Shown: positions 1,473 through 59,962 of the stretch, piece by piece
Position numbering within the stretch: the first letter of the stretch is position 1
How the letters are laid out: every line of letters begins with the position of its first letter
Notes under the pieces: generated by a model
What the model saw: only the letters and a program-made list of their open reading frames with translations
Told to the model about the DNA's origin: nothing
Databases searched by the model: none
Position numbers and translations under genes: made by a program
From: Kiritimatiellia bacterium
Lineage (GTDB): Bacteria > Verrucomicrobiota > Kiritimatiellia > RFP12 > DVOR01
Reading direction: 5' to 3'
NCBI GenBank assembly: GCA_017531445.1
Contig: JAFXKZ010000002.1
Span: 9,286 to 73,285, forward strand
Length of the DNA stretch: 64,000 bases

Positions 1473-2254
1473 TGTGCGTGCCCCAACCATGGTAAACCGC
1501 CAGCGTTTTCCAATGGAGAAGGCAGGTTTTCAGCCGCGATCGCATCCAGGAAAAATTGCTCCAGCGACCCTTTGAGGTCGTGGATATTACCGTAGGCGCG
1601 TGTTTCACCACGCTCAAGAATAAGCACTTTGTCGGCACACTCTTGGACATCTCCCAATAAGTGGGAACTCATCAAAACCGCGATACCGCGTTCGCGCAAG
1701 GCTAAAATCAGATCCTTTACTTCACGTGTTCCGACAGGATCAAGCCCGGAGGTGGGTTCGTCCAGGATGAGCAGTTGAGGCGCATTCAAAAGTGCTTGTG
1801 CCAGACCGACGCGCCGTGTCATTCCCTTTGAAAAGGCACTGACGCGTCGATGCTCCGCGTATTGAAGTCCAACGAGACGCAAGAGATCGTCGATGCGTGC
1901 TTCCAATTGGCCTCCGGAAAGACCGGAAAGCCTTCCGTAATACCGCAATGTTTCGCGAGGCGTGAGGAATGGATGCAGATAGGTGATCTCCGGAAGATAG
2001 CCCACCGATTGGCGGGCATCCGTGGAAGAGGGCGGCTGATTGAAAATACGAATGTTGCCGCTGTCGGCTTTCAGTAAGCCCAGAATCATACGGATGGTGG
2101 TGCTTTTGCCGGATCCATTGGGGCCGAGTAAGCCGAAGACTTCGCCGGGTTGGATTGAAAAACTGAGCGTTTTGACAGCGGAAACAGTCGGTCTTCCCCA
2201 GAAGTCCCGGAATGTTTTACTGACGGCATCAACCTCAAGAAGCGTCATTTCCAT
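1469..2254 (-). CDS. ABC transporter ATP-binding protein
   Basis: Walker A GPNGSGKST, signature-like FSKGMTRRV, Walker B LLILDEPTSGLD and H-loop SSHLL. Abuts the upstream permease gene with no gap. Confidence 0.9.
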   Translation of the reverse strand: MEMTLLEVDAVSKTFRDFWGRPTVSAVKTLSFSIQPGEVFGLLGPNGSGKSTTIRMILGLLKADSGNIRIFNQPPSSTDARQSVGYLPEITYLHPFLTPRETLRYYGRLSGLSGGQLEARIDDLLRLVGLQYAEHRRVSAFSKGMTRRVGLAQALLNAPQLLILDEPTSGLDPVGTREVKDLILALRERGIAVLMSSHLLGDVQECADKVLILERGETRAYGNIHDLKGSLEQFFLDAIAAENLPSPLENAGGLPWLGHAQ

Positions 2255-3130
2255 CTAGACTGCCTCCCTTCTGGAAAGTAATTGAATGCCCATCCAGGTG
2301 AACAAAAGGAATTCTGCAATGGACTGCGGAAGTAAAAGAAGAATGATTCTTGCAGAAACTGTGCCGCCATAAGCAAGCGTATCGAGTGGGAGATATGCGG
2401 CACCATGCGCGAGAATGAGGGTTGCGCCGGTGAAGAAAAAAGTTAGGCAAACCATAAGCCCCGGAGGAGAAATGAGGGCGAACATTCCGGCAAGTGCGAG
2501 CACCTGTATCAAGAACAGGGCGATGGTTATGAGGAGCGAGAGGCTGCCCCAATGGAGTTGCTTCGGGAAGAGTGGGGTAATCCATAGCAACAATGGAAGT
2601 GAAAGTGCTGCGGTTAGTGTGAAGCGGCATCCGCGCAGTCGATGATTCAGTGCCCCGAAAACGAGAGCTGCAATTGGGAAGAGGAGGGCATAGAAGAGAC
2701 TGTGAAGATCTGCATATGAGCCCGAAGTGTGATAGCGAGGTGAGCACGCTTCGGCAGTAAGAATCGCAGCACCCATTGTAAGAAGAAACCAAAAAAGGGT
2801 GAGGATTGTGCCGCCAAGATGTCCGCAAAACCAGACGCCTCGGCTCAAAGGTTTGGTCAGTGCAATGGCGGCAGTGCCGTTCTTGAGCGTACGATGAAGG
2901 CTTGCCATGCAACCGCAAATAAGGAATATTCCGAAGAGAAATGTGGTTGCCAGTCCGCAATCACGTGCGAGGCGACCGTCTTCAGAGAAGCGCTGGAATT
3001 GGAAAAGGGGAAGAAGCATTGTCCCGATGGTGGCCGTTAAAGTAAGCAACAAGACAGCAGGTGTGCCGAGATGTTCCAGTGCAGAGAAGCGGGCGATGGC
3101 AATAAGTTGTTTCAGTGTCTTAAGGCACAT
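2255..3130 (-). CDS. ABC-2-type transporter permease (multi-TM)
   Basis: ORF 2255..3244 is strongly hydrophobic throughout. The start was moved to ATG 3130 (MCLKTLKQ), which lies 4 nt past the murA stop. The longer ORF would overlap murA by 110 nt. Confidence 0.6.
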   Translation of the reverse strand: MCLKTLKQLIAIARFSALEHLGTPAVLLLTLTATIGTMLLPLFQFQRFSEDGRLARDCGLATTFLFGIFLICGCMASLHRTLKNGTAAIALTKPLSRGVWFCGHLGGTILTLFWFLLTMGAAILTAEACSPRYHTSGSYADLHSLFYALLFPIAALVFGALNHRLRGCRFTLTAALSLPLLLWITPLFPKQLHWGSLSLLITIALFLIQVLALAGMFALISPPGLMVCLTFFFTGATLILAHGAAYLPLDTLAYGGTVSARIILLLLPQSIAEFLLFTWMGIQLLSRREAV

Positions 3131-3134
3131 GGAA

Positions 3135-4439
3135 TCAGGGCTCCCGTGTGATTCGTGCGCCGAGAGCCTGAAGATTTTGCTCAACGTTTTCGTAACCGCG
3201 ATCGATTGACTCGGCGTTATGAATAATAGTCTTCCCTTTTGCACACAGTGCTGCGATAATGAGTGCGATCCCAGCGCGGATATCCGGACTGGAGACTACA
3301 CCGCCATGCAATTTGGTCGGGCCGGTAATGACAGCGCGGTGCGGGTCGCATTGAACGATTCGTGCACCCATTCCGATGAGATGATCGACAAAATAGAGCC
3401 GGCTTTCAAACATTTTTTCAAAGAAGAGTTCTGTGCCACGCGTTTGGGTAGCGAGGACAATCAGAACGCTGAGCAGGTCGGATGGCGTCATTGGCCAAGG
3501 ACCATCTTCAATTTTCGGGATGGCTTTGCCGAGGTCGTAGGATGTGCGCAACGTTTGATTTGGAGGAAGATAAAGCGAACGTTTGGTGGCATTTGTTTTC
3601 CATGTCACGCCAAATTTCTTGAAAACGGGCAGTAAAATGTCCATTTCTTCCTTCTCTACGCCATGAAGTGTCAAGGACCCTTTGGTGACAAGTGCTGCGA
3701 CAATATAACTGGCTGCTTCAATGGTATCGCCGCCAACCCGGAATGTTCCTCCGGAGAGTTGTTGAACCCCATGGATGAGAAGGCGGTTTGTGCCGATACC
3801 TTCAATCCGTGCGCCCATCGTGTTTAGCATATGGCAAAGATTTTGTACGTGCGGTTCGCAAGCGACGTTGTAGAGTGTTGTTATCCCTTCTGCCCGAACA
3901 GCGGCCATGACAAGGTTCTCTGTCGCCATTACCGAGCACTCGTCCAAAACAAAGTCTATCCCGTGCAACGATCCGTTTTTGCACTCCAACGTGATGGCAC
4001 CGGAGGGCTTAAAGCGCGTTACAACACCCATTTCGCGGAAACCGTTAACGTGCGTATCCAACCTTCTGCGCCCGATACTGTCGCCACCGGGTGCCCCTCC
4101 CAGAAGAATTTTTCCACAACGTGCCAGACAGGGGCCGGCAAAGAGAAACGAAGTGCGGATGCAGGTGCAGGTTTTGGAAGGGACGAAGGCCGGAAGATTG
4201 AGTGTGCGTGCGTCAATCGTTACACGATGTTCTTGCGGAGAACCTTCCACCGTTGCCCCCAACGCTTTCAAGCCGTCAATCATCCGATGGACGTCAATAA
4301 TATCGGGCACGTTTTCCAGTGTGACAGGCGCATCTGCCAGAAGGGTCGCGGCGAGCATTGGCAATGCGGCATTTTTGTTTCCGGGCACTTGATGAATGCC
4401 GGAGATGGGGTTGCCGCCGTGAATGATGAATCTTGACAT
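3135..4439 (-). CDS. murA: UDP-N-acetylglucosamine 1-carboxyvinyltransferase
   Basis: 434 aa. The N-terminus MSRFIIHGGNPISG..VPGNKNAALPMLAATLLA and the overall length are typical of MurA. Confidence 0.92.
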   Translation of the reverse strand: MSRFIIHGGNPISGIHQVPGNKNAALPMLAATLLADAPVTLENVPDIIDVHRMIDGLKALGATVEGSPQEHRVTIDARTLNLPAFVPSKTCTCIRTSFLFAGPCLARCGKILLGGAPGGDSIGRRRLDTHVNGFREMGVVTRFKPSGAITLECKNGSLHGIDFVLDECSVMATENLVMAAVRAEGITTLYNVACEPHVQNLCHMLNTMGARIEGIGTNRLLIHGVQQLSGGTFRVGGDTIEAASYIVAALVTKGSLTLHGVEKEEMDILLPVFKKFGVTWKTNATKRSLYLPPNQTLRTSYDLGKAIPKIEDGPWPMTPSDLLSVLIVLATQTRGTELFFEKMFESRLYFVDHLIGMGARIVQCDPHRAVITGPTKLHGGVVSSPDIRAGIALIIAALCAKGKTIIHNAESIDRGYENVEQNLQALGARITREP

Positions 4440-6678: not shown

Positions 6679-6859
6679 TACCATAACAGTATAGCAAATA
6701 CCTTCATGTGCGTGAGAGAAGAAAGGCGATTCCGGAGATTTTTGTATTGCCCATTGCATCTGTCATTTCGTATGTGTAATGGCGACCATTCTTGAAGGTT
6801 CGCAACAGCAGGGAGCGTTTCAGGCGGGTAAAGAGACCCGTGCGGCGAGGGGGCGGCGC

Positions 6860-6941
6860 AACATCGCCGATACTGCTGCGTGATATCGGCGAAATTGCGC
6901 TTGAATATCGCCGATGTTGCAGGGGTAATGTCGCCGATGTT
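6860..6941. repeat. array A of the phased 15-bp palindrome AACATCG-N-CGATGTT (4 units)
   Basis: AACATCGCCGATACT (centre 6867), GATATCGGCGAAATT (6889), AATATCGCCGATGTT (6911), AATGTCGCCGATGTT (6934). Spacing is 22/22/23 bp. Located in a divergent intergenic region. Confidence 0.8.
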
Positions 6942-7217
6942 GTTTGGAACTTTTCGCGGCGAAACGCCAGACAGGAGGGAAACCATGGTTTTGATCGGAG
7001 CTGTCTGTCCGGAGGGGGTGGCGGCAAATACGGGATGAAACGCGTCAGGTGTAACTGCGGGGCGCGCAGACACGTAAAATTATTTTGAAAGAAATGGGAA
7101 ATAGGGTTGAAGCATCTATTTTTCTTTGTTAAACTGGTGCTGTTGTGATGAACAATGACGTTTTTGCATTGCTTGTTTGAAGCATGGATTGACGAATAAC
7201 GGATGGAGGTTTGAGTT

Positions 7218-8420
7218 ATGGCAACGAAAAAAACTGCACCTGCTGGAAGTGCGCCAAAGAAAGACGCCAAAAAGGTGACTGCTGGTGCCGCGAAGAAGCG
7301 CGCGGCTGTCAAGGTTTCTGCCAAGGCGTCCGCTGTGAAAACGTCAAAGCCGACCTCAACTTCTGTTAAAAAAACGGCGGCAACAAAAGTCGAGCCTGTT
7401 AAGAAGCCCGCGGCAAAAGCCGCCGCTCCGGCAAAGAAGCCTGTTGCAAAGAAGGCAGCTCCTGCGCAGAAACCGGCTTCAAAGGCATCTGCTCCGGTGA
7501 AGAAGCCTGCTGAAAAGAAGGTCGCACCAGTCAAAAAGCCTGTGGCAAAGACGGCTGCGCCGGCGAAGAAAACGGTCGCCAAAAAGTCGGAACCTGCCAA
7601 AAAAACGGTAGTAAAAACGGCTGCTCCGGTGAAAAAAAGCACGGCTAAAAAAGCAGAACCTGCTAAAAAAGCAACGGCACCAAAGGCGACAACAGTGAAA
7701 AAGCCTGTGGCCAAGAAAAAGGAACCTGCTAAACAACCGGCAGCGAAGAAGACCGCACCTGTAAAAAAGGCTGTGACGGTGAAGGCTGAACCTGTTAAGA
7801 AACCCGCGCCGCAAAAGGCGAGTGCGGACAAAAAGCCTGTGACGAAGAAAACGGCACCAGTGCAGGCTCCTGCTGTCAAACCTCCTAAAACGACTGCGAT
7901 GCGTCCGGCGACACTGACCCCTAAAACGACAGTAAATTCAGTGCCGGCCGCCGGTATGCGTCAGATTTCTGCGCTGAAGCCCAATTATGAAATGGTGCAT
8001 CCCAAGAGCGGCGGCCGGAAAGCTGCCGCGCAGCGTCAGCCCACGCGTACACCGTTCAAAGAGGAAGAATTGGAAGCGATCAAGCAGCTTTTGCTCGATG
8101 AACGTGCAGAAAAGTTGAAACTCCAGAGCGTCATGTCCAATGATGCGCTGAGCCGTCCGGACGAAGAAAACGTTGAAGAAGACGGTTCCAACTCTGCCAA
8201 TCGTGCCGATATGTTGGCACGTGCCGAAGAAACACGCAAGCGTTTGCGCGCAATTGATGATGCACTTCGGGCAATTGAAAACAAGACTTACGGCATCTGT
8301 TCTGTTTGTAAATGCGCGATTTCGCGTGAACGCTTGAAAGCTGCGCCGTTCGCAATCCGTTGCGTTAAATGCAAGGCTGAGTGGGAACGTCAGATGCAAG
8401 CTTCGCGTCATAACTATTAA
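7218..8420 (+). CDS. Lys/Ala/Pro-rich histone-H1-like repeat region fused to a DksA/TraR C4 zinc-finger domain
   Basis: About 225 aa of KKPxAKK/APAKK repeats, followed by a coiled-coil region and CSVC-x17-CVKC at the C-terminus. GGAGG RBS at 7204-7208. Confidence 0.8.
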   Translation: MATKKTAPAGSAPKKDAKKVTAGAAKKRAAVKVSAKASAVKTSKPTSTSVKKTAATKVEPVKKPAAKAAAPAKKPVAKKAAPAQKPASKASAPVKKPAEKKVAPVKKPVAKTAAPAKKTVAKKSEPAKKTVVKTAAPVKKSTAKKAEPAKKATAPKATTVKKPVAKKKEPAKQPAAKKTAPVKKAVTVKAEPVKKPAPQKASADKKPVTKKTAPVQAPAVKPPKTTAMRPATLTPKTTVNSVPAAGMRQISALKPNYEMVHPKSGGRKAAAQRQPTRTPFKEEELEAIKQLLLDERAEKLKLQSVMSNDALSRPDEENVEEDGSNSANRADMLARAEETRKRLRAIDDALRAIENKTYGICSVCKCAISRERLKAAPFAIRCVKCKAEWERQMQASRHNY

Positions 8421-8960: not shown

Positions 8961-9917
8961 ATGATCGTCACAACGAAGGAACTCTTCAAGCACGCCTACG
9001 GCAAATATGCCATTGGTGCTTACAATATCAACAACATGGAGCAGTGCATGGGCCTCTTCCGTGGTTGCATTGAGAGCAAGGCTCCGTTCATTATTCAGAT
9101 TTCCAAGGGTGCGCGCGGCTATACCGATAAGCTGATGTTGGAAAATGTGATTCGTGCAGCTGATAAAATTTTCCCCGAAGCCGTCTTTGCTGTTCACTTG
9201 GATCATGGTGATGAAGAATCCTGCATTGACTGCATCAACTCCGGGTTTTACAGCTCGGTGATGATCGATGCCTCCTCCAAGCCTTTTGAAGAAAACGCCG
9301 CTATCACAAAGAAAATCGTTGAGTTGGCTCATGCTAAGGGGCTTGTGGTCGAAGCAGAACTCGGCAAGCTCGGCGGCGTGGAAGAGCACGTGGCTGTGGA
9401 TGAAAAGGATGCGTGTCTTACCAATCCTGAAGACGTGAAACGCTTTGTGGAAGCTACCGGCTGCGACTCTCTTGCGTGTGCAATCGGTACTTCGCACGGT
9501 GCATTCAAGTTCTCCGGCAATCAGGGGCTGCGCTTTGATGTGCTTTCCGATATTCAGAAGAAGGCTCCCGGATTCCCGTTGGTAATGCACGGATCGTCTT
9601 CCGTTCCGCAAGACGAAGTCGCCCGTATCAATGCTTCCGGCGGTAAGCTGGATGGTGCAAAGGGTGTGGATGACAATCAATTCAAGCGTGCTGCTGAATT
9701 GGGCGTTACCAAGATCAATATCGACACAGACGGTCGCTTGGTGTGGTGCCGTGTGCACCGCGAATACTTCCGCGATCACCCGGAAGGTTTTGACCTTCGC
9801 CCCATCGGTAAGATCTTCATGGAAGAATATGCCAAATTCATCGCCGCAAAGAACGAAAAGCTCGGCTCTGCCGGACAGCTTGATTCCGTGCGTGAATTCT
9901 GCAAAGCGAATGCTTAA
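8961..9917 (+). CDS. fba: fructose-bisphosphate aldolase, class II
   Basis: VHLDHGDEE and AIGTSHGAFKF motifs. AGGAG RBS at 8947-8951. Confidence 0.92.
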   Translation: MIVTTKELFKHAYGKYAIGAYNINNMEQCMGLFRGCIESKAPFIIQISKGARGYTDKLMLENVIRAADKIFPEAVFAVHLDHGDEESCIDCINSGFYSSVMIDASSKPFEENAAITKKIVELAHAKGLVVEAELGKLGGVEEHVAVDEKDACLTNPEDVKRFVEATGCDSLACAIGTSHGAFKFSGNQGLRFDVLSDIQKKAPGFPLVMHGSSSVPQDEVARINASGGKLDGAKGVDDNQFKRAAELGVTKINIDTDGRLVWCRVHREYFRDHPEGFDLRPIGKIFMEEYAKFIAAKNEKLGSAGQLDSVREFCKANA

Positions 9918-13617: not shown

Positions 13618-13899
13618 TTAGTCGAAGTGTTGATGTATTCTTTCGGACAGATAAAAAGGGTGTCTATCAGGTAACCGTTTATTTTGAATGGAAATGGAAT
13701 TGGTGGCATTCTTTGCGATGAGTGTTTTTTGAGGAGGTGAAGTGGTAAATCTGTGTGTTGGTGTGGGGATTGATGGGAATAGCTGTTTGTTAAGCGGTTG
13801 AAAAGGGTGTATAGGAGAGTCAAAGTGAAAACTTGTATTTAACGCGTGTTGGCGTGATGTTTGAGCGTGTTGCGATTGAGAATTGGCAGAGACTTTTTG

Positions 13900-13980
13900 T
13901 GTGTCGCCGAAGTTGATTCACGATGTCGCCGATAAGCGCACGGAGTGTCGGCGATATTGAAGCGCAGTTTCGCCGAGATA
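13900..13980. repeat. array B of the phased palindrome (4 units)
   Basis: Unit centres at 13907, 13929, 13951 and 13973, exactly 22 bp apart. Examples are GATGTCGCCGATAAG and AGTGTCGGCGATATT. Confidence 0.8.
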
Positions 13981-14104
13981 GAAATGCGCTTTGGGCGGGA
14001 GAACTTTTCTAAGTGGTGTAAGATCGCAATAGTGGTTGGGGGGGAAGGGTGGAAATAATGGCTGTGTGTAAAAGTCGCACGGGGGTATTTCTTTTGGGGG
14101 CAGG

Positions 14105-14183: not shown

Positions 14184-16031
14184 ATGTTGAAGTCTTTTTT
14201 TGCGTTGTTCACTTCGCTGATGTTAATGGGCTTTGCACAGGTTTCTGCGAGTGTTCTTAATGATTTAATGCCGCGCCCAAAGGTGGTGCGCGATGCTTCC
14301 ACGGAGATGTGGCAGTTTGATCCGCAAGCAATTAAGCAGTGTGTTGCAGGTGAAGCGATTGCAAAACTGGTTGCGAAGGGGAAAGAGGCATATGGATTGA
14401 TAATTACGCCTTCCGGCGTAGAGTGGTATGGTAATGAGCGTTATGCGATGGTGACGCTGCGTCAGTTGGCTGCGCTTGGCGATGGGAAAATCCCTTGTTG
14501 CACGATTGAAGACTGGCCGACGTTGCCCTATCGTGGGATGCTTCATGATACTGGTCGGAATTGGCAACCGTTGTCGCAGCTGAAAATGCAGTTGGATTGG
14601 CTGGAGAAGTATAAGTTCAATTGTTTCCAATGGCATATTACAGATAATCATGGGTGGCGTTTGCAATCTGAAAAATATCCGGAATTGTCGCATCCGCAAA
14701 ACCTTGACCGCACGGATCATTACTACACTCAGGCGGAATTCAAAGCGTTAATCGCTTATGCGAAGGCGCGCGGGATTACTGTAATTCCCGAATTGGATGT
14801 GCCGGGGCATTCAGCGACGATGCGGCGCGCCTTTGGGGTAAAAAAGATGAGTGAACCCAAGATGCGGGGGATTATTTCGGAGCTCTTCGATGAGTTATTG
14901 ACCTTGTTGGATCCCGAGGTGACGCCTTTCATTCATATCGGTTCGGATGAAGTAAAACCGCATGAGCAGGTGCCGGGGGAATGGATTGTCGGGTGGGTTA
15001 ACCAGATTGAAGCGAAGGGGTTTAAGGTCGTAGCCTGGGGACCTGGTCAATCTCCTAAAGGGTTGCGGCAACCGCTGATTCGCCAATATTGGATGGGACG
15101 TCAGGTACGTCGGCCGGAAAATGAACCGTACTTTGACTCGCAATCTTCTTACTACATCAATCACGTGGATCCCTTGGAGCTGCTTGCGGCGGCGACTTAT
15201 CAGAAGCCATGTTTGACGGGTTCGGTTGAAAATCGCTTGGGTGCGATTTTTGCGGTTTGGCATGATGATGCAGTCGCTAAGCCTGAAGATATTTTGACGA
15301 TGAATCCGGCGTTTCCGGCGATGGTGCTCTATTCGGATAGTTTTTGGAATGGACGCGAAAAAGACCAAATGCGCTACATCGGCAATCTTCCTCCGCCGGA
15401 TGATCCGGAGTTTTCTCTTGCAATGGAATTGGAACGCCGCACGCTCGCGCAGAAACCTTTCTTCAAGGGGTTGCCCTTTGACTTCTACAAACAAACGCAG
15501 ATGCGGTGGCGAATGGCCGAAACCGCTGAAACAAAGCCTTTCAATGAATTGCCCTGGTCACAACGGATTATCGCGCAAGGTACAATCTATCCCCAACATT
15601 TCTTTTATGCTCAGACGAACTTGACGAATGGGAAAAGTGGATGTGTCTGGTTGGGCACTGTGGTGAACAGTGATGCTGATCGCACGGTGGAAATGATTGC
15701 AGACTGTATGAATTATTCCCGCAGTGATGGGCGTACGCGCGATGTGGCATTGGTTCAGGGAAAGTGGAATGGCAAAGGTGCCGAGATTTACCTCAACGGA
15801 AAGCCCGTCCCGCCTCCGCAATGGAAACAGCCGGGTCTCCAAGGTCGTGGAACGATTGAAAAACCTTTGGTGGATGAACCATGGATGGTGCGTGAACCAG
15901 TGCGTGTGCAATTGAAAAAAGGAAGGAATGAACTTCTGATCAAATTGCCGCGCAAGGGATGGAAGTGGAGTGCCACCTGTTTCTTCCCAAATGATGAAGG
16001 GCTCTCATTTGAGGCACCTGAGTTAAAATAA
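14184..16031 (+). CDS. secreted beta-N-acetylhexosaminidase, glycoside hydrolase family 20
   Basis: Signal peptide, then GMLHDTGRNW, FQWHITDNHGWR and HIGSDEV (catalytic D-E pair) motifs. Confidence 0.85.
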   Translation: MLKSFFALFTSLMLMGFAQVSASVLNDLMPRPKVVRDASTEMWQFDPQAIKQCVAGEAIAKLVAKGKEAYGLIITPSGVEWYGNERYAMVTLRQLAALGDGKIPCCTIEDWPTLPYRGMLHDTGRNWQPLSQLKMQLDWLEKYKFNCFQWHITDNHGWRLQSEKYPELSHPQNLDRTDHYYTQAEFKALIAYAKARGITVIPELDVPGHSATMRRAFGVKKMSEPKMRGIISELFDELLTLLDPEVTPFIHIGSDEVKPHEQVPGEWIVGWVNQIEAKGFKVVAWGPGQSPKGLRQPLIRQYWMGRQVRRPENEPYFDSQSSYYINHVDPLELLAAATYQKPCLTGSVENRLGAIFAVWHDDAVAKPEDILTMNPAFPAMVLYSDSFWNGREKDQMRYIGNLPPPDDPEFSLAMELERRTLAQKPFFKGLPFDFYKQTQMRWRMAETAETKPFNELPWSQRIIAQGTIYPQHFFYAQTNLTNGKSGCVWLGTVVNSDADRTVEMIADCMNYSRSDGRTRDVALVQGKWNGKGAEIYLNGKPVPPPQWKQPGLQGRGTIEKPLVDEPWMVREPVRVQLKKGRNELLIKLPRKGWKWSATCFFPNDEGLSFEAPELK

Positions 16032-16836: not shown

Positions 16837-19800
16837 TTAGTTTGTCGCCGATCTGCTGAAACGCATTGAAAGCGTACGCGAGACACCTTTTTCAGGCATC
16901 GTTACGCCATAAACGATGTCCGAGCCTGCGATGGTGTGTTGATTATGAGTAATAATCAGAAATTGGGAATGAACAAGGAAATCTTTCAATGCATCGACAA
17001 AGCGACCGATATTACTATCATCAAGTGCTGCGTCCAATTCGTCCAACAAGCAGAATGGCGCCGGTTTTATCAGAAAGATGGCAAAGAGGAGCGAAACGGC
17101 GGTCATGGTGCGTTCTCCTCCGGAAAGCAGACTGATTGTTTGCGGCTTTTTCCCTGGCGGTCTGGCGATAATATCAATGCCACATTCAAGAGGATCTTCC
17201 GTGTTTTCAAGCAAAACCAAACGTGCTTCTCCGCCATGAAAGAGCCGGGTAAACATCTTTTCAAAGTTTTGATTCGCCCGGTCAAATGTTTCTCTGAAGC
17301 GTTTCCCAGAAGTCTCATTGATGGTTTTGATAAGCGTCATCAACTCATTGTGAGATTGTTCAAGGTCATTTGCTTGTGCCTGATAGAAGGTTTGCCGCTC
17401 TTCCAACGCCTGAAATTCTTCAATTGCCAATAGATTTACAGGCCCGATACGGTCAAGTTCAATGCGGATATCCGCCATCCTTGTTTCAATCCATTCGTCC
17501 GAAGGCGTTTCGGTTGTTTCCCAGATTGCGCATGGTTCTTCAGAGAAAGACTCTGGTGTAACGCCGTAATCGACTTGAAGTCGCTCCATCAATGCTTGAT
17601 GACGTGCACGATTTTCGGCCATTGTTACTTCGGCTTTGGTTTTTATTTCTTGTGCTTCCAGCAGTGTTTTGCGGGCGGAAGCAGATGCGTGTTCCAGTGA
17701 TTCACGTTGAGCACAAAGTTCAAGGCGTTCACTTCTGGCGGCTTCAATTTGTTGTTGAAAGGTCAGCGTTTCCTGTTGCATATCATCGAGGGACGCAATA
17801 ATCTTCAGATTATCTGCCTCAAGTTTCTCAATGTTATTGAAGCATCCCTTGATAGAATCATTCCGGCTATTGATGGTGGATTCCAACTCTTGCAATCGAG
17901 CAATATGATTCCGTGCCTGCGTCAGCGCGTGTTCACGTTTTTGCATAAAACCGGCCATGCGGAATCGTGCTTCACTTAATCTGGCGGCGACGCTGTCCAA
18001 TTCGCCTTCAAGTGAGGTGAGCCGCTCGGAAGCGATTGTGGTGATGTGGGTATGGCGTTCACGTTCTTCTGCAAGTGCGTCAAGCCCATCACGTGCTTGT
18101 GCGTGTTCTGCTTCGTCCTGTTCTGCGGACGCAGTCATTTCGGTAAGACGAAGTTGCAATTCGTTGAAGCGTGTCTCTGCGGTGGTAAAGTCGCGCGTTG
18201 CCGCAGTGTTGAGCGCGGCGGCTTGATCGGCAAGCCGTTGAGCCCGTTCCAATTGCCGCTGCGCATCGCGCCATTTCGCGGTGATGGCATCAATACGGGC
18301 TTGGAGTGTGGCGATGGATTGTTCTTCTGCATCAATTTCTTGATAAAGCGTGTTGGCGCGCTCTTCAAGCTCTACGCAAACTTGATGCCGTGCCAATGAG
18401 GTGGCATTAGGCGTGATAGCCAATTTGGCGATATCGCCTGCCGCGAACCGAACAATGCCCTGATTCGTGACGATTGCCGTGACACCTTCCGGGATTTCAT
18501 CGGGAAGCGTCTCTGCAAAAAAGTAACCGTAAAGGATGCGGTTGAGCAATGCAGTTGTGGTGGCATCTGCAGAAATAAACTTGGTAAGAGGCGTAAATGG
18601 CGTTGGTATAGGAGAGGGGGAGGGTGGTGCATCGGCGATAAGCAGGTGAAGCGTTTCGCCGGGGAAAACTTCGGTACAGCGCATGACCAGTCTGGAGGCC
18701 ACCTGTTCATCCCGCACGATGATGGCTTGGCTCCAAGGTTGTAACGCGGATTCAACGGCATGTTGATGCGCTTTGTCGATTGAAATGAGGTCGGCAAGTG
18801 TACCGATGATGTCGCCTTCCCGGACGTGAAGCGGATTGGACGGCTCGAAGAGTCTGCGCCCTGCGTCCGGCACTTCTCCCGGGATGGGCTGTGAAAGCAG
18901 TTCCCGCTGTGCTTCAATTGCTGCAATTTGTCGCCGGCGATCTTCTTGGCGTTTTTGAGCGGTTGCCACATCATCGGCGATGAATGAGCGGTCTTCATCC
19001 AATGTAATCAGGGCTTCGCGTGTCTCTTCTGCCAGAAGCCGATGCGCTTCAAGTTCGTGCTGAGCCGATTGCCGGGCACTCGCCGCTGCATCACGCTGAC
19101 GTGCGGCTTCTTCGGTTTCTGCGGCGAGACGTTCACGTTTGAGCAAGCGTTCTTCGCGTTGCCCATCATGTTTGGAGAGAACCTGTTGCCATTGGAGTTG
19201 GTGACGGTCGCAGCGTGTCAGGGCGTTACGGGCTTCCTGAAGCTCTGCGCGTGTGGCGTCCACTTCTGCCTTGCGTTCATCGTAAAGCGTCTGTGCTTCA
19301 TCAAGGAGCGTTTGCAAAATCTCCTGCTCGTCATCAAATGCACTGATGTCCGGCACGGCAGAAGGATCGTGCTGCGCTACTTCAATCCGTTCACGTGCTT
19401 CTGCTACTTCACGCTCCAAGCCCACGGCCCAATTCCGATATTCAGCAATTCGGGCAAGGTTGCTTTCAATGATTTCTTGTGCACGCTTGTGCCGGGCAAC
19501 ACTGGCGGCAGATTGTTCTGAAAGCCTGGCAATGGCATCTTCGCCGACCTGAATCCGGGCGTTGACTTCTGTGATTGCGCGTGTGGCGGCATCGGCTTCA
19601 TCTTGAATGGCGTGGATGCGGTTGGTGGCTTCTGCCACAGCGAAGCCGGCTTGTGCAATAGCTTCTTCCAGTGCTGCAATGCGTTTTTTGGAGAGATAGA
19701 GGTCAAGCCCCCGAAGTTCGCCCCGAAGCGTTTTTGCACGTTCAGCTTTCTCTGCTTGCCGTTGCAAGAGGGTGCTTTGACGTTTCAGTTCGCGCAAAAT

Positions 19801-20379: not shown

Positions 20380-20602
20380 AATCAAAACATATTCTAACAT
20401 AAAAGCAGCTTTCGCAAGGAGGAACAGAAGCGTTCATTCAATAGAAAATGTGTATAAACCGTATTTTTCTTTTTTGCCGGAGCTGTTTGCGGCGGGTGTG
20501 CCTGTTAATAAGGTGCGCCACCGGCGATTTTTCTTGAAGTAATTGTGGCGTATGTGCCACCTGCCGGTGGCATTGTGTGGTGATGCAGAGGGCGTTTGCG
20601 GG

Positions 20603-20706
20603 ACTGTCGCCGGAAACGGCAGATACGTATGGGCGACTTTGGCGGCGAATGTCGCCGATATGAAGGCGTCATCTCGCCCATGTTGCCGCGCGGTATCGCC
20701 CATGTT
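20603..20706. repeat. array C of the phased palindrome (5 units)
   Basis: Unit centres at 20610, 20633, 20655, 20677 and 20699. Examples are AATGTCGCCGATATG, CATCTCGCCCATGTT and GGTATCGCCCATGTT. Confidence 0.8.
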
Positions 20707-20915
20707 CAAAAGCCGTTAAAATGATGCCTTTGGTAATTGCCCCGGTTGGTCTGATTTTTCATCAGACAGATGCTTTTTAATTGCTTTTCTGATTGATGGA
20801 AGCGCACCATAATGTTCACCGGCACCTGAAATAGCTTTTTGCGGTATGTATCGGCGGGGAATATGCTAAACTATGTCCATTCCGGCGAGGGAAGCCGGAG
20901 AAAGAGGATTGGAAG

Positions 20916-24987: not shown

Positions 24988-25103
24988 TGCGGGATTATTT
25001 TATGGGAAAGGGGGTTGCCATTTGTGGAATTTCAGGTGATCTATCGGCGAAATTACGATTTCTTTACTTGGATAAGCCATATCGGTTTCAGGCAAGCAGC
25101 GGA

Positions 25104-28216: not shown

Positions 28217-28375
28217 ACGTATAGATTATAGCACATATTCTTGAATAATCCGCTTGCAGGAAGACGCTTTGCAAAGAACGCAGCGGCAGTATGCACATAC
28301 ATGGAATGATGTGTGGCCGATTGTTTTTCCGGAAAAGCGGGAGAGGGCAACAGTATGTCTGCGAGAATGGGGTTG

Positions 28376-28457
28376 AACGTCGGCGATGTCGGCTTGGAAA
28401 GTCGCCGGTATCCGAGCGGAATATCGCCCGTGTTTATGCGTAAACATGGGCGATATT
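28376..28457. repeat. array D of the phased palindrome (4 units)
   Basis: Unit centres at 28383, 28405, 28427 and 28450: AACGTCGGCGATGTC, AAAGTCGCCGGTATC, AATATCGCCCGTGTT, AACATGGGCGATATT. Confidence 0.8.
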
Positions 28458-28537
28458 GAAATAAGGGTGTGGAAAGTTGCTGACAAGGAATGCAGATTAT
28501 CTGCGCAGCCCCATGGCAAAGGTGTTGCGGATATCCC

Positions 28538-46463: not shown

Positions 46464-46673
46464 GACTTTTTTTCATATTTCCTGAAAAAGTTTTTCGTTT
46501 CTCGATAAACCGCTTTGTGCAACAGGTAAAAGCGCGTTTACTTCTCTGCGGATAAACGTCACGCAGCATCTGTATTATCGGATGACGCGTTGCGCTGATT
46601 TTCCTGAAGAGCAGAGGAGATATGGCCATGTGCGAGACAGCAGCATGATAGAAGGCCTGCGACAGGCCGGGAG

Positions 46674-46755
46674 AACATCGGCGATGTTGGCTATGTATTA
46701 TCGCCGATCTTGGCTTTCACTGCCGCCCATCTTGAAGCGCATTGTCGCCGATACT
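46674..46755. repeat. array E of the phased palindrome (4 units, including a perfect 15-bp palindrome)
   Basis: AACATCGGCGATGTT (46674-46688, perfect), ATTATCGCCGATCTT (46697-46711), a degenerate CTGCCGCCCATCTT unit, and ATTGTCGCCGATACT (46741-46755). Spacing is about 22-23 bp. Confidence 0.8.
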
Positions 46756-46953
46756 GAAAATCCGCGTTTGCGCCTGCAGGTTACGCTTGCAGGCGCGACA
46801 CTTTTTTGAAGTGAACACGGGGGAATGTACAGATTGACGGCGGCGTGCCCGACCGAGCACGGAGTGTATGTTTTGTGAAGACGCGATGCCAATCCTATTT
46901 TTCATGAATTGAAGCGCGTGCGTTACTTTACAATTCTCTGCGATACGCCTCCG

Positions 46954-56405: not shown

Positions 56406-57164
56406 GTGAAGAATCGCTATTGTAATAGTATCGCAATCCTTTGCTTGTTGGCGAGTGGATATATCGCGTTAGGTGTTTTCCCGAGGCTGCGAGAATATCG
56501 TATTGAAAAGGGATGTGTTGCGTATGTGTATGGAGATTACAAAACTGCTCTAAAATATTGTATTCCAGCAGCGAAACGTGGTCACGTGAAATCGATGGCC
56601 ATTGTGGGTGAATGTTATCGTAATGGTTATGAGGTTGAACAGTCTTATTCAGAGGCGGTGAAGTGGTATCGTAAGGCCGCAGAGCAAGGGCATGCATTGG
56701 CGCAGCTTAATCTTGGCGGGTGCTATGCAGTGGGCTACGGTGTTTCGCAGTCTTGGACAGAGGCAGTGAAGTGGTATCGCAAGTCTGCCGAGCAAGGAGA
56801 TGCGGTAGCGCAGTTTAATCTTGGAGTGTGTTATGCCAAAGGTGATGGTGTTTCGCAGTCTTGGACAGAGGCCGTGAAGTGGCTTCGCAAGTCTGCCGAG
56901 CAAGGAAATGCTGATGCGCAGCTTAATCTTGGTTGGTGTTATGCAGAGGGAAAAGGTGTTTCGCGGTCTCGGACAGAGGCTGTGAAGTGGTATCGCAAGT
57001 CTGCCGAGCAAGGAAATGCATTGGCGCAGTTTAATCTTGGCCGGTGTTATGCCTATGGTAATGGAGTTCGGCAGTCTTGGACAGAGGCTGTGAAGTGGTT
57101 TCGCAAGGCCGCCGAGCAAGGCGATCCGGATGCAAAGGAAGCATTGAAACGATTAGGATACTAA
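56406..57164 (+). CDS. N-terminally membrane-anchored Sel1-repeat (SLR/TPR-like) protein
   Basis: TM helix SIAILCLLASGYIALGVF followed by six 36-aa Sel1 repeats (AVKWYRKSAEQGNAxAQxNLGxCYAxGxGV). GTG 56406 lies 7 nt after a GAGGA that overlaps the GTPase stop. Confidence 0.85.
   Translation: MKNRYCNSIAILCLLASGYIALGVFPRLREYRIEKGCVAYVYGDYKTALKYCIPAAKRGHVKSMAIVGECYRNGYEVEQSYSEAVKWYRKAAEQGHALAQLNLGGCYAVGYGVSQSWTEAVKWYRKSAEQGDAVAQFNLGVCYAKGDGVSQSWTEAVKWLRKSAEQGNADAQLNLGWCYAEGKGVSRSRTEAVKWYRKSAEQGNALAQFNLGRCYAYGNGVRQSWTEAVKWFRKAAEQGDPDAKEALKRLGY
56652..57125 (+). repeat. tandem 108-bp DNA repeats encoding the Sel1 units
   Basis: Units start at 56652, 56760, 56868, 56976 and 57084 (GAGGCnGTGAAGTGG...). 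High nucleotide identity between units. Confidence 0.85.
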
Positions 57165-59710: not shown

Positions 59711-59835
59711 GGGAAGAACCCTTTTCTTCAAAAGCCTTTAGTGGCGTAACCTTGCCCCTGAAAGCGGGCACTGCCGGAGCTTTGTAGAGTGGAGTCCGTT
59801 AATATTGACAAATGTGCCCGGCGAGATGCGGTTTT

Positions 59836-59917
59836 AAGATGGGCGAAATCGGGAATGCGTTTCGCCGATGTTGAAACCGCACATGGGCGATGTCGCCGTT
59901 AATGTTTCGCCGAAAGT
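59836..59917. repeat. array F of the phased palindrome (4 units plus degenerate flank)
   Basis: Unit centres at 59843, 59865, 59887 and 59910: AAGATGGGCGAAATC, CGTTTCGCCGATGTT, CACATGGGCGATGTC, TGTTTCGCCGAAAGT. Located in a convergent intergenic region. Confidence 0.75.
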
Positions 59918-59962
59918 GAAAACGAATGGCCGCAAGCATCATTGCTACGGCCATTCGTTTCA
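59915..59962 (-). terminator. rho-independent terminator of purL (possibly bidirectional)
   Basis: 12-bp stem AACGAATGGCCG / CGGCCATTCGTT (59921-59932 / 59948-59959). The minus strand continues TTTTCAC. Confidence 0.7.

Follow-up and report, generated by a model that had tools for sequence, protein, structure and literature searches.

The region considered here is a 64,000-nucleotide stretch of contig JAFXKZ010000002.1 (assembly GCA_017531445.1, positions 9,286 to 73,285) from a gut Kiritimatiellia bacterium, referred to below as the window and numbered from its first letter, in which phased arrays of a short palindromic motif recur between genes. The genes of the window, about 38 of 47 of which were checked against Pfam and the remainder by precomputed annotation, have housekeeping functions and include those for EPSP synthase, ResB/CcsA, a DksA/TraR zinc-finger protein, FBA, PFOR, GH20, SMC, a Na/H exchanger, a rhomboid protease, PheS, ilvC and purL, among others. 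Neither a transposase, recombinase, REP-associated tyrosine transposase (RAYT), cas or rep gene nor an obvious regulator was found among the window genes by Pfam or annotation, and a search of the whole window with Rfam 15 at the gathering score returned tRNA-Leu only, the arrays matching no RNA family. The named relatives of the ThiI-like protein encoded in the window are Kiritimatiellae.

Six intergenic loci each carry four to five units with a TCG-S-CGA core, spaced at 22–23 bp and all given here on the + strand; they lie where the initial annotation had placed them, and the unit centres it gave for array A are confirmed. Array A (6834–6945) comprises a degenerate leader at 6845 and four units centred at 6867, 6889, 6911 and 6934, with centre steps of 22, 22 and 23 bp, which read AACATCGCCGATACT, GATATCGGCGAAATT, AATATCGCCGATGTT and AATGTCGCCGATGTT (6860–6941). 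It occupies the spacer from which the ResB-like/CcsA genes and a gene for a lysine-rich DksA-type (DksA/TraR) zinc-finger protein diverge, the same gene context as had been described earlier. Array B (13896–14006), with four units centred at 13907, 13929, 13951 and 13973 and a weak fifth at 13995, lies in a tandem spacer leading from the PFOR gene to the GH20 gene, both on the + strand. Array C (20599–20710) has five units centred at 20610, 20633, 20655, 20677 and 20699, some with CCCAT/ATGGG variant half-sites, and sits between the divergent smc and ThiI-like genes. Array D (28350–28461) consists of a leader unit at 28361 and four units centred at 28383, 28405, 28427 and 28450, and lies in tandem between the rhomboid and Na/H-exchanger genes, both on the − strand. 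Array E (46649–46759) begins with a leader-like CTGCGAC segment followed by four units centred at 46681, 46704, 46726 and 46748, the third of which is weak, and is found in tandem between tRNA-Leu and a U32 peptidase gene, both on the − strand. Finally, array F (59810–59921), with a leader unit at 59821 and four units centred at 59843, 59865, 59887 and 59910, lies in the convergent spacer between a DUF805 gene and purL.

The arrays are thus hosted by divergent (A, C), tandem (B, D, E) and convergent (F) spacers, are found in 6 of the 12 spacers that measure 240 bp or more, and amount to about one array per 10 kb. Five of the six sit 145–280 bp upstream of some gene start on either strand, and spurious open reading frames (ORFs) overlap them. 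A seventh, lone near-match (TCTATCGGCGAAATT, 25040–25054), which had been counted as a further copy of the motif, scores low with the position weight matrix (11–13 bits), and in three contigs from strains that are about 99% identical a substitution (25048 C>A) breaks its core; for this reason it is probably a chance match outside the array family. Tandem repeats also occur within genes of the window. In a 400-aa protein encoded at 7218–8420, 33-bp tandem repeats (7363–7821) specify a lysine/alanine-rich, histone H1-like region, and the protein ends in a DksA/TraR C4 zinc finger, while 108-bp tandem repeats at 56650–57121 (4.4 copies) encode Sel1 repeats inside a 262-aa protein.

The arrays are real and lie far beyond chance. 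Allowing up to three mismatches, AACATCGNCGATGTT matches 18 times compared with 3.98 expected, and none of 100 shuffles reaches 18; the three-unit phased pattern matches four times in the window against an expectation of 0.00, and one-mismatch cores form five chains of three or more at 21–23 bp, compared with 0.03 in Markov simulations. No phased core chains at periods of 15–20 or 24–35 bp exist in the window, nor was a second 22–23 bp unit family or another array period found there. In addition, the exact heptamer TCGSCGA reaches 2.53 per kb in intergenic and 0.31 per kb in coding sequence, an approximately eightfold difference. Both the phasing noted in the initial annotation and the enrichment of the motif exceed chance within the window.

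Alignment of 29 units in register yields the consensus AATGTCGCCGATGTTG, with a module core that is a 15–16 bp pseudo-palindrome of the form AA-yr-TCG-S-CGA-yr-TTG. Next to the dyad, G at −1 (28 of 29 units) and C at +1 (all 29) are near-invariant, and the dyad itself is C in 17 units, G in 12 and A or T in none, so that the flip of the central base between C and G, noted earlier, holds in every unit. The earlier description of the motif as a 15-bp inverted repeat needs a correction: what is conserved is an asymmetric unit and not a perfect palindrome, since 22 of 29 units have G at +8 but only 8 of 29 have the mirror C at −8. The CCCAT half-site variants reported at that time do recur, in the form of ATCGCCCAT or its reverse complement ATGGGCGAT, in about eight units when counted by eye. 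While the cores are strongly conserved, the 6–7 bp linkers are close to random. Furthermore, the spacing is strictly 22/23 bp without indels in all six arrays, and the unit number is fixed at four to five.

When the six arrays are aligned with each other, they display positional homology that extends beyond the units, with a leader CnGCGAG, four units, a dyad pattern of G-C-C-C and a 3′ TGAAAA; the third unit carries the CCC variant in arrays C, D and E, and its flipped form in F. A position-weight scan combined with a relaxed chain search likewise places, in most arrays, a fifth degenerate unit 22 bp before the first clear one. All six thus go back to a single ancestral cassette, about 110 bp long and with a polarity, from which they have diverged; its boundaries are drawn from the six-array alignment. 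The earlier count of four to five units per array stands, and the leader unit and the TGAAAA end of the cassette have to be added to it. In leave-one-out scoring, the + orientation exceeds the − orientation in B (41.7 vs 20.3), C (38.4 vs 19.4), D (30.5 vs 11.9), E (47.1 vs 20.1) and F (24.9 vs 16.7), and A is ambiguous (34.7 vs 33.9), meaning that at least five of the six arrays are in the + orientation, whatever direction the neighbouring genes run. A super-period of 44–45 bp is present inside arrays B, C, E and F, and some neighbouring units pair as inverted repeats of 17–31 nt, as exemplified by units 3 and 4 of D (17 nt) and units 1 and 2 of F (22 nt). Outside the six arrays, no consistent direct or inverted repeats that might represent terminal inverted repeats (TIRs) or target site duplications (TSDs) were found, which leaves the signs of a MITE (miniature inverted-repeat transposable element) considered in the initial annotation without a counterpart, and the units bear no constant tag of the GTAG/CGTC type.

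The question of whether the palindromes act as duplex DNA or as folded single strands was approached through base pairing. Within units, 72.9% of cells are pairable compared with 71.1 ± 1.9% in shuffles of the 3′ letters, 98 of 500 of which reach the observed value, and a per-position covariation test gave a single marginal position (p = 0.026, uncorrected). Similarly, 49 units of a related-looking family from Prevotella, described below, exhibit no covariation, and their position ±4 is mostly A.A or T.T, that is, anti-palindromic. In the absence of covariation, the palindromy is a property of the consensus rather than a maintained set of base pairs, whereas a dyad restricted to C and G amounts to two orientations of one G:C pair and thus fits symmetric recognition of duplex DNA. 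The lack of covariation, the C/G-only dyad, the invariant phase and the fixed unit number favour recognition of the duplex by a symmetric protein.

Contigs of strains about 99% identical to the window span positions 18540–39202 and allow the arrays to be followed within the species. Array C displays no strain differences in 111 bp, compared with 16 in the other 404 bp of its spacer. A hypervariable segment lies just downstream of it (20731–20818), with 12 differences in about 90 bp between these strains. Array D has two polymorphisms, 28379 G>A and 28408 G>A, and at both of them the other strains carry the consensus allele (AACGTCG to the consensus AACATCG, and TCGCCGG to TCGCCGA), the changes falling in core or arm positions. 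Arrays C and D are present in the approximately 99% identical strains, A and B are found in all metagenome contigs identical to the window, on which proteins of the window are encoded, and the unit copy number is constant; this comparison of presence covers arrays A–D. Overall, the strain comparison provides modest evidence for constraint on the arrays.

Between species the picture is one of turnover, the sequence family being species-specific while the architecture recurs in relatives. The relatives carry other 22–23 bp arrays built from other palindromic units, such as AATGTAAGTTACATT (three copies), TCGCCCATATGGGTGA (3.6 copies) and several more, and one of their loci (L247, 8148–8207) contains a near-identical three-unit array that looks recently duplicated. 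In the closest other species, the corresponding spacers have been rearranged or taken up by other repeats, hence insertion boundaries of the cassette are not definable from them. In one related species (L374), an unrelated dispersed repeat of about 170 bp is found upstream of FBA (9520–9690) and downstream of PFOR (14830–14995), that is, in the places where the spacers of the window carry arrays A and B. Further repeat-rich regions were seen in related Kiritimatiellae, including a 2.2-kb gene-free stretch (L247, 7781–10001) packed with short hairpins whose stems differ and after each of which comes GTGGATTRG, along with larger segments that are repeated, which looks like a highly structured RNA or a nest of repeats, and a contig (L252, 1–3447) with cas9-cas1-cas2 followed by a long repeat array at 1616–3447.

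The reading that we tentatively put first, with slightly less than even confidence, is that the arrays are dispersed operator-like cassettes that would be bound cooperatively by a putative dimeric protein, would have spread by duplication or transposition, and would owe their conserved cores to continued maintenance. Each module would serve as an operator-like site for a symmetric, dimeric, sequence-specific protein, with double-stranded DNA as the working form. The phasing at two helical turns would align four to five dimers along much the same side of the helix and thereby permit cooperative binding, the dimers possibly acting in pairs, as the 44-bp super-period hints, and together they would form a nucleoprotein complex spanning about 100 bp. 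Protein binding, its cooperativity, the function of the complex and the mode by which the cassette spread are all what we infer from the arrangement of the sequence. The dimeric protein and its cooperative, one-face binding had been anticipated in the initial annotation, and the dyad, the phase and the cores agree with them; the arrays are not independent operator clusters, being copies of a cassette. Their occurrence in all spacer types, next to unrelated housekeeping genes, is the behaviour of dispersed repeats and not of a promoter regulon, and the complex would therefore more likely act as a landmark or in chromosome architecture than as an operator for a single regulon.

Several observations weigh against this proposal. 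No candidate for the binding protein was found among the window genes, which have housekeeping functions only. The family is specific to the species, relatives having other 22–23 bp arrays instead, and it is absent from about 87 kb of related species in which the ThiI-like protein is 78–89% and FBA 86% identical; such turnover is fast for the sites of a chromosomal architectural protein, and is more characteristic of selfish repeats. Evidence for constraint at the level of strains is also thin, with two differences in 222 bp of array compared with 19 in 614 bp. In addition, the consensus is asymmetric, G.T-compatible unit positions number 28 on the + strand and 7 on the − strand, five of the six arrays fold 7–15 kcal/mol better on the + strand, and several neighbouring units form long inverted pairs, all of which would also suit a single-stranded form.

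These features lend themselves to an explanation in which the arrays are a REP/BIME- or MITE-like selfish element (repetitive extragenic palindrome/bacterial interspersed mosaic element) that acts through hairpins in single-stranded DNA, formed by single units or by pairs of neighbours on the lagging-strand template, its cassette being recognised and spread by an HUH (RAYT or IS200-IS605-type) or another transposase. The family is dispersed, strictly intergenic and species-specific, the relatives have other repeat families at comparable places, and the alignment reveals copies of one cassette, most of which share their orientation regardless of gene direction. An excess of G on the + strand runs through + genes and − genes, third codon positions and spacers alike, which makes it the lagging-strand template, and this is also the strand that folds better. 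The GC skew is monotonic, with no origin in the window, and 32 of the 47 window genes are on the − strand, head-on to the replication direction deduced in this way. However, part of the G.T excess is expected from the intergenic GC skew of 0.227, and the orientation statistic is weak with only five to six arrays. There is no compensatory covariation, and a dyad that is C or G and never A/T would be odd for the loop of a hairpin. Moreover, conserved cores beside randomised linkers are unlike the neutral decay of an inserted copy, and neither a GTAG/CGTC tag, a TIR or a TSD at the arrays nor a transposase or RAYT in the window was found. A selfish element of this kind is regarded as unlikely, though it is the explanation that competes best with protein-bound cassettes.

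A further possibility is that the arrays are transcribed and work as structured RNA, as repeated hairpin modules in 5′ or 3′ untranslated regions or in + strand small RNAs, serving for instance to stabilise RNA or to sponge an RNA-binding protein. The G.U-compatible asymmetry is confined to the + strand, the folding z-scores of arrays A, B, D and F range from −2.75 to −4.8, and co-transcription with + strand neighbours is conceivable for arrays A, B, C and F. A relative (L247, 9090–9597) likewise carries modules made of a hairpin plus a linker, with different stems. Directly 3′ of array E there is a strong terminator-like hairpin on the + strand (46768–46798, 14 pairs and then CACTTTTTTG), which, with both neighbouring genes on the − strand, may mark an unannotated + strand transcript. 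On the other hand, the z-scores of C (−1.35) and E (+0.13) are not significant, arrays D and E are antisense to both neighbours, and neither covariation nor an Rfam match was obtained. Six copies in 64 kb with sequence-conserved cores in strict helical phase are also atypical for RNA families, and the mostly A.A or T.T mismatches at ±4 of the Prevotella-type units point in the same direction, which makes a structured RNA improbable.

We consider it equally improbable that the arrays form a classical regulon, with one transcription factor controlling the adjacent genes from arrays of operators. This could account for the position of five of the six arrays 145–280 bp upstream of a gene start, and regulator sites at two turns are documented for the hybrid two-component system (HTCS) motifs of Bacteroides (PMC3878776); some Prevotella-type arrays, furthermore, lie just upstream of a TAnnTTTG promoter-like motif. 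Array F and one Prevotella array, however, are in convergent spacers with no promoter to control, and the neighbours of the window arrays (DksA-like, GH20, smc/ThiI-like, Na/H exchanger, tRNA-Leu, purL) have no common function. In addition, about one array per 10 kb, filling half of the long spacers, is too dense for a regulon, and close relatives have no such sites in their orthologous spacers. Finally, functionless minisatellites created by local replication slippage are very improbable. Exact 22–23 bp tandem repeats are common in metagenomes and the near-identical three-unit arrays of relatives look recently duplicated, but in the window the linkers have diverged strongly between units while the cores have not, the same cassette with positional homology is found at six loci, strains do not vary in copy number, array C is invariant within a variable spacer, and no other period or unit family is present.

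Arrays of similar build are not confined to Kiritimatiellae. A scan of genome contigs for three cores, dominated by chance matches in GC-rich coding sequence with a 21-bp period, identified at least three in the Prevotella sp. metagenome-assembled genome SUG3187, among the matches listed, and at least 10 further metagenome contigs from rumen or gut carry arrays of this Prevotella type. The Prevotella-type arrays are intergenic and consist of three to five units at exactly 22 bp with the unit AAAWTCGSCGAWTTTG. Their units are strictly direct, with A/T tracts as arms, and, in contrast to the window arrays, which belong to a different phylum, one dyad base is kept throughout an array, often with TAnnTTTG following. 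They are flanked by unrelated genes (clpB, cytochrome bd, MDH, an efflux OEP, UvrC and others), and the one in L108 occupies a convergent spacer. A third family, ACGGAGTATCGCCGAAAAGCCG, was found by the metagenome scan in contigs resembling Bacteroidales.

The frame AAnnTCGSCGAnnTTG is common to the window family and the Prevotella-type units, and because the search itself demanded the heptamer, only five extra shared positions count toward relatedness, so that homology of the two families is uncertain. Many of the metagenome matches are exact minisatellites that hold the heptamer only through the query and are uninformative on a universal core; exact 22–23 bp tandem repeats of many sequences abound in metagenomes. 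The Prevotella-type arrays are almost missing from 2.9 million viral contigs, where the three-core pattern matched mostly by chance and stricter patterns matched 0 and 3 contigs, none of them of the window type, and BLAST against 72,556 plasmid records gave no match to the arrays.

Some details of these foreign loci deserve mention in their own right. The sequence TAnnTTTG is the −7 promoter consensus of Bacteroidetes, and motifs that fit it lie about 10–20 bp after Prevotella-type arrays at L069 (7469–7490), L272 (1205–1226) and L331 (5698–5741), the motif itself being repeated at 22 bp in L331 and L361. On a Prevotellaceae contig (L106, 102–365), two 22-bp minisatellites stand side by side, five copies of CCAACCCGTCGGCGAACTTCCG and then six or more of CCATCAGGGTGGAGGATTTTCT. 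A gene for an HU-HIG protein (PF18291) is located directly downstream of a 22/23-bp palindromic array in two cases on unrelated contigs, 158 bp from the array at L248 (18197–18295) and 59 bp from that at L272 (1117–1205), and no further HU-HIG genes were found near arrays in the other loci examined. HU-HIG proteins are reported to diversify rapidly and, in the published view, are unlikely to be sequence-specific (PMC5499826). As one candidate for the array binders, lineage-expanded HU-HIG proteins are speculative.

A bolder generalisation, which seems rather doubtful to us, would be that the arrays represent an undescribed class of chromosomal phased palindrome arrays, found in at least Kiritimatiellota and Bacteroidota and sharing in part the core AAnnTCGSCGAnnTTG, that is under selection and provides landmarks through a dedicated, fast-evolving architectural protein. 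The oriented nucleoprotein marks could then correspond to domain boundaries, topological sites or sites of self-marking. The importance of the arrays lies in their unusually regular build, in which a fixed number of sites, a two-turn phase and conserved cores beside free linkers are combined and recur across phyla, and which speaks for a defined nucleoprotein complex of several dimers that is repeated at intervals of about 10 kb. A binding protein, should there be one, would open a new way into how uncultured gut bacteria organise their chromosomes or mark self and non-self, and if the arrays are selfish elements, they would exemplify a new architecture of non-autonomous element. In practical terms, the arrays are usable as species or strain markers and are a possible source of assembly artefacts, as well as of annotation artefacts, given the spurious ORFs that overlap them.

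Dispersed intergenic repeats are known mostly from Proteobacteria, where they include REP/BIME and ERIC (enterobacterial repetitive intergenic consensus) sequences, and from a few other lineages, and to our knowledge almost nothing has been reported on such repeats in Kiritimatiellae, gut Prevotella or other Bacteroidales. Literature searches for the motif returned primers only, and no published description of the motif or the arrays was found. One close comparison is with REP/BIME, which are also short, palindromic, strictly intergenic, clustered, high-density and species-specific units, and the confinement of all six arrays in 64 kb to intergenic DNA agrees with this class. REP/BIME clusters have been proposed to bind proteins such as gyrase and IHF and to sit in all spacer types (PMC3733652). 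REPs differ, however, in being stem-loops of 20–40 nt with a GTAG/CGTC head, usually in alternating orientation with variable linkers, whereas the arrays of the window are direct tandems of 15–16 bp units at a strict 22/23 bp, with no tag and no covariation. The arrays do not match the REP/BIME stem-loop, as their pairing is no better than the column composition predicts and a constant tetranucleotide is missing. They do not match MITEs either, as neither consistent TIRs or TSDs nor a presence/absence polymorphism was found, arrays A–D being present in the strains compared.

BrickBuilt elements of Porphyromonas gingivalis are exclusively intergenic tandem repeats with units of about 22–23 nt and about 19 copies per genome (PMC4596501). 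They possess leader and tail segments with TIRs resembling those of insertion sequences, are close to promoters, and vary from 1 to 22.8 in copy number (PMC4596501). The likeness consists in dispersed intergenic tandem arrays of about 22–23 nt in a gut or oral anaerobe lineage, but the BrickBuilt unit AGAYCATARTATCCTCTCRTRTG is unrelated, and the arrays of the window have a fixed number of four to five palindromic units with a conserved core and no TIRs. CRISPR arrays have repeats of about 23–55 bp, unique spacers of similar length and usually cas genes nearby; this identity is rejected for the arrays, in which the conserved part is 15–16 bp, the linkers 6–7 bp and the units four to five, with no cas genes in the window. 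The parS sites of ParB are conserved across species and clustered near the origin; the 16-bp palindrome near TGTTNCACGTGAAACA differs from the motif, relatives lack the family, and no origin is present in the window. That the motif is not recognisable as parS or a DnaA box, as the initial annotation had it, is upheld on sequence grounds, on which sigma-70, extracytoplasmic function (ECF) sigma factor and Bacteroidetes promoters, PhoB/OmpR direct repeats and the ARG box were also rejected.

Systems with protein sites in regular series come nearer in build. Plasmid iterons are four to seven direct repeats of 17–22 bp with a 22-bp periodicity, located beside a rep gene and an AT-rich unwinding element, and Tn7-type ends contain three to four 22-bp TnsB sites, which are non-palindromic and form inverted pairs around the transposon. 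The arrays resemble both in that four to five sites, each about 22 bp long, stand in direct tandem over about 90 bp, each bound by a protein unit in those systems; iterons are nevertheless rejected, with no rep gene in the window, six separate chromosomal loci and no plasmid match, and the setting of Tn7 ends is likewise missing. Palindromes of about 18–20 bp at two helical turns are known from GlpR/DeoR-type operators and from paired 18-bp ARG boxes 21 bp apart, and tandem operators of oligomeric repressors, bound cooperatively by dimers, follow each other in a row of several over about 40–90 bp. GlpR/DeoR and ARG-box arrays belong to the promoters of one regulon and are conserved among related species, whereas the arrays of the window accompany unrelated genes, include a convergent spacer, are species-specific and bear no similarity to those consensus sequences. 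In Bacteroides, HTCS regulators have two-turn direct repeats as locus-specific pairs (PMC3878776). In functional terms, the dyad, the conserved cores, the spacing and the absence of covariation are the structural features of a tandem operator array of a dimeric, double-stranded DNA-binding protein, and this is the class to which the cassettes of the window correspond in their build.

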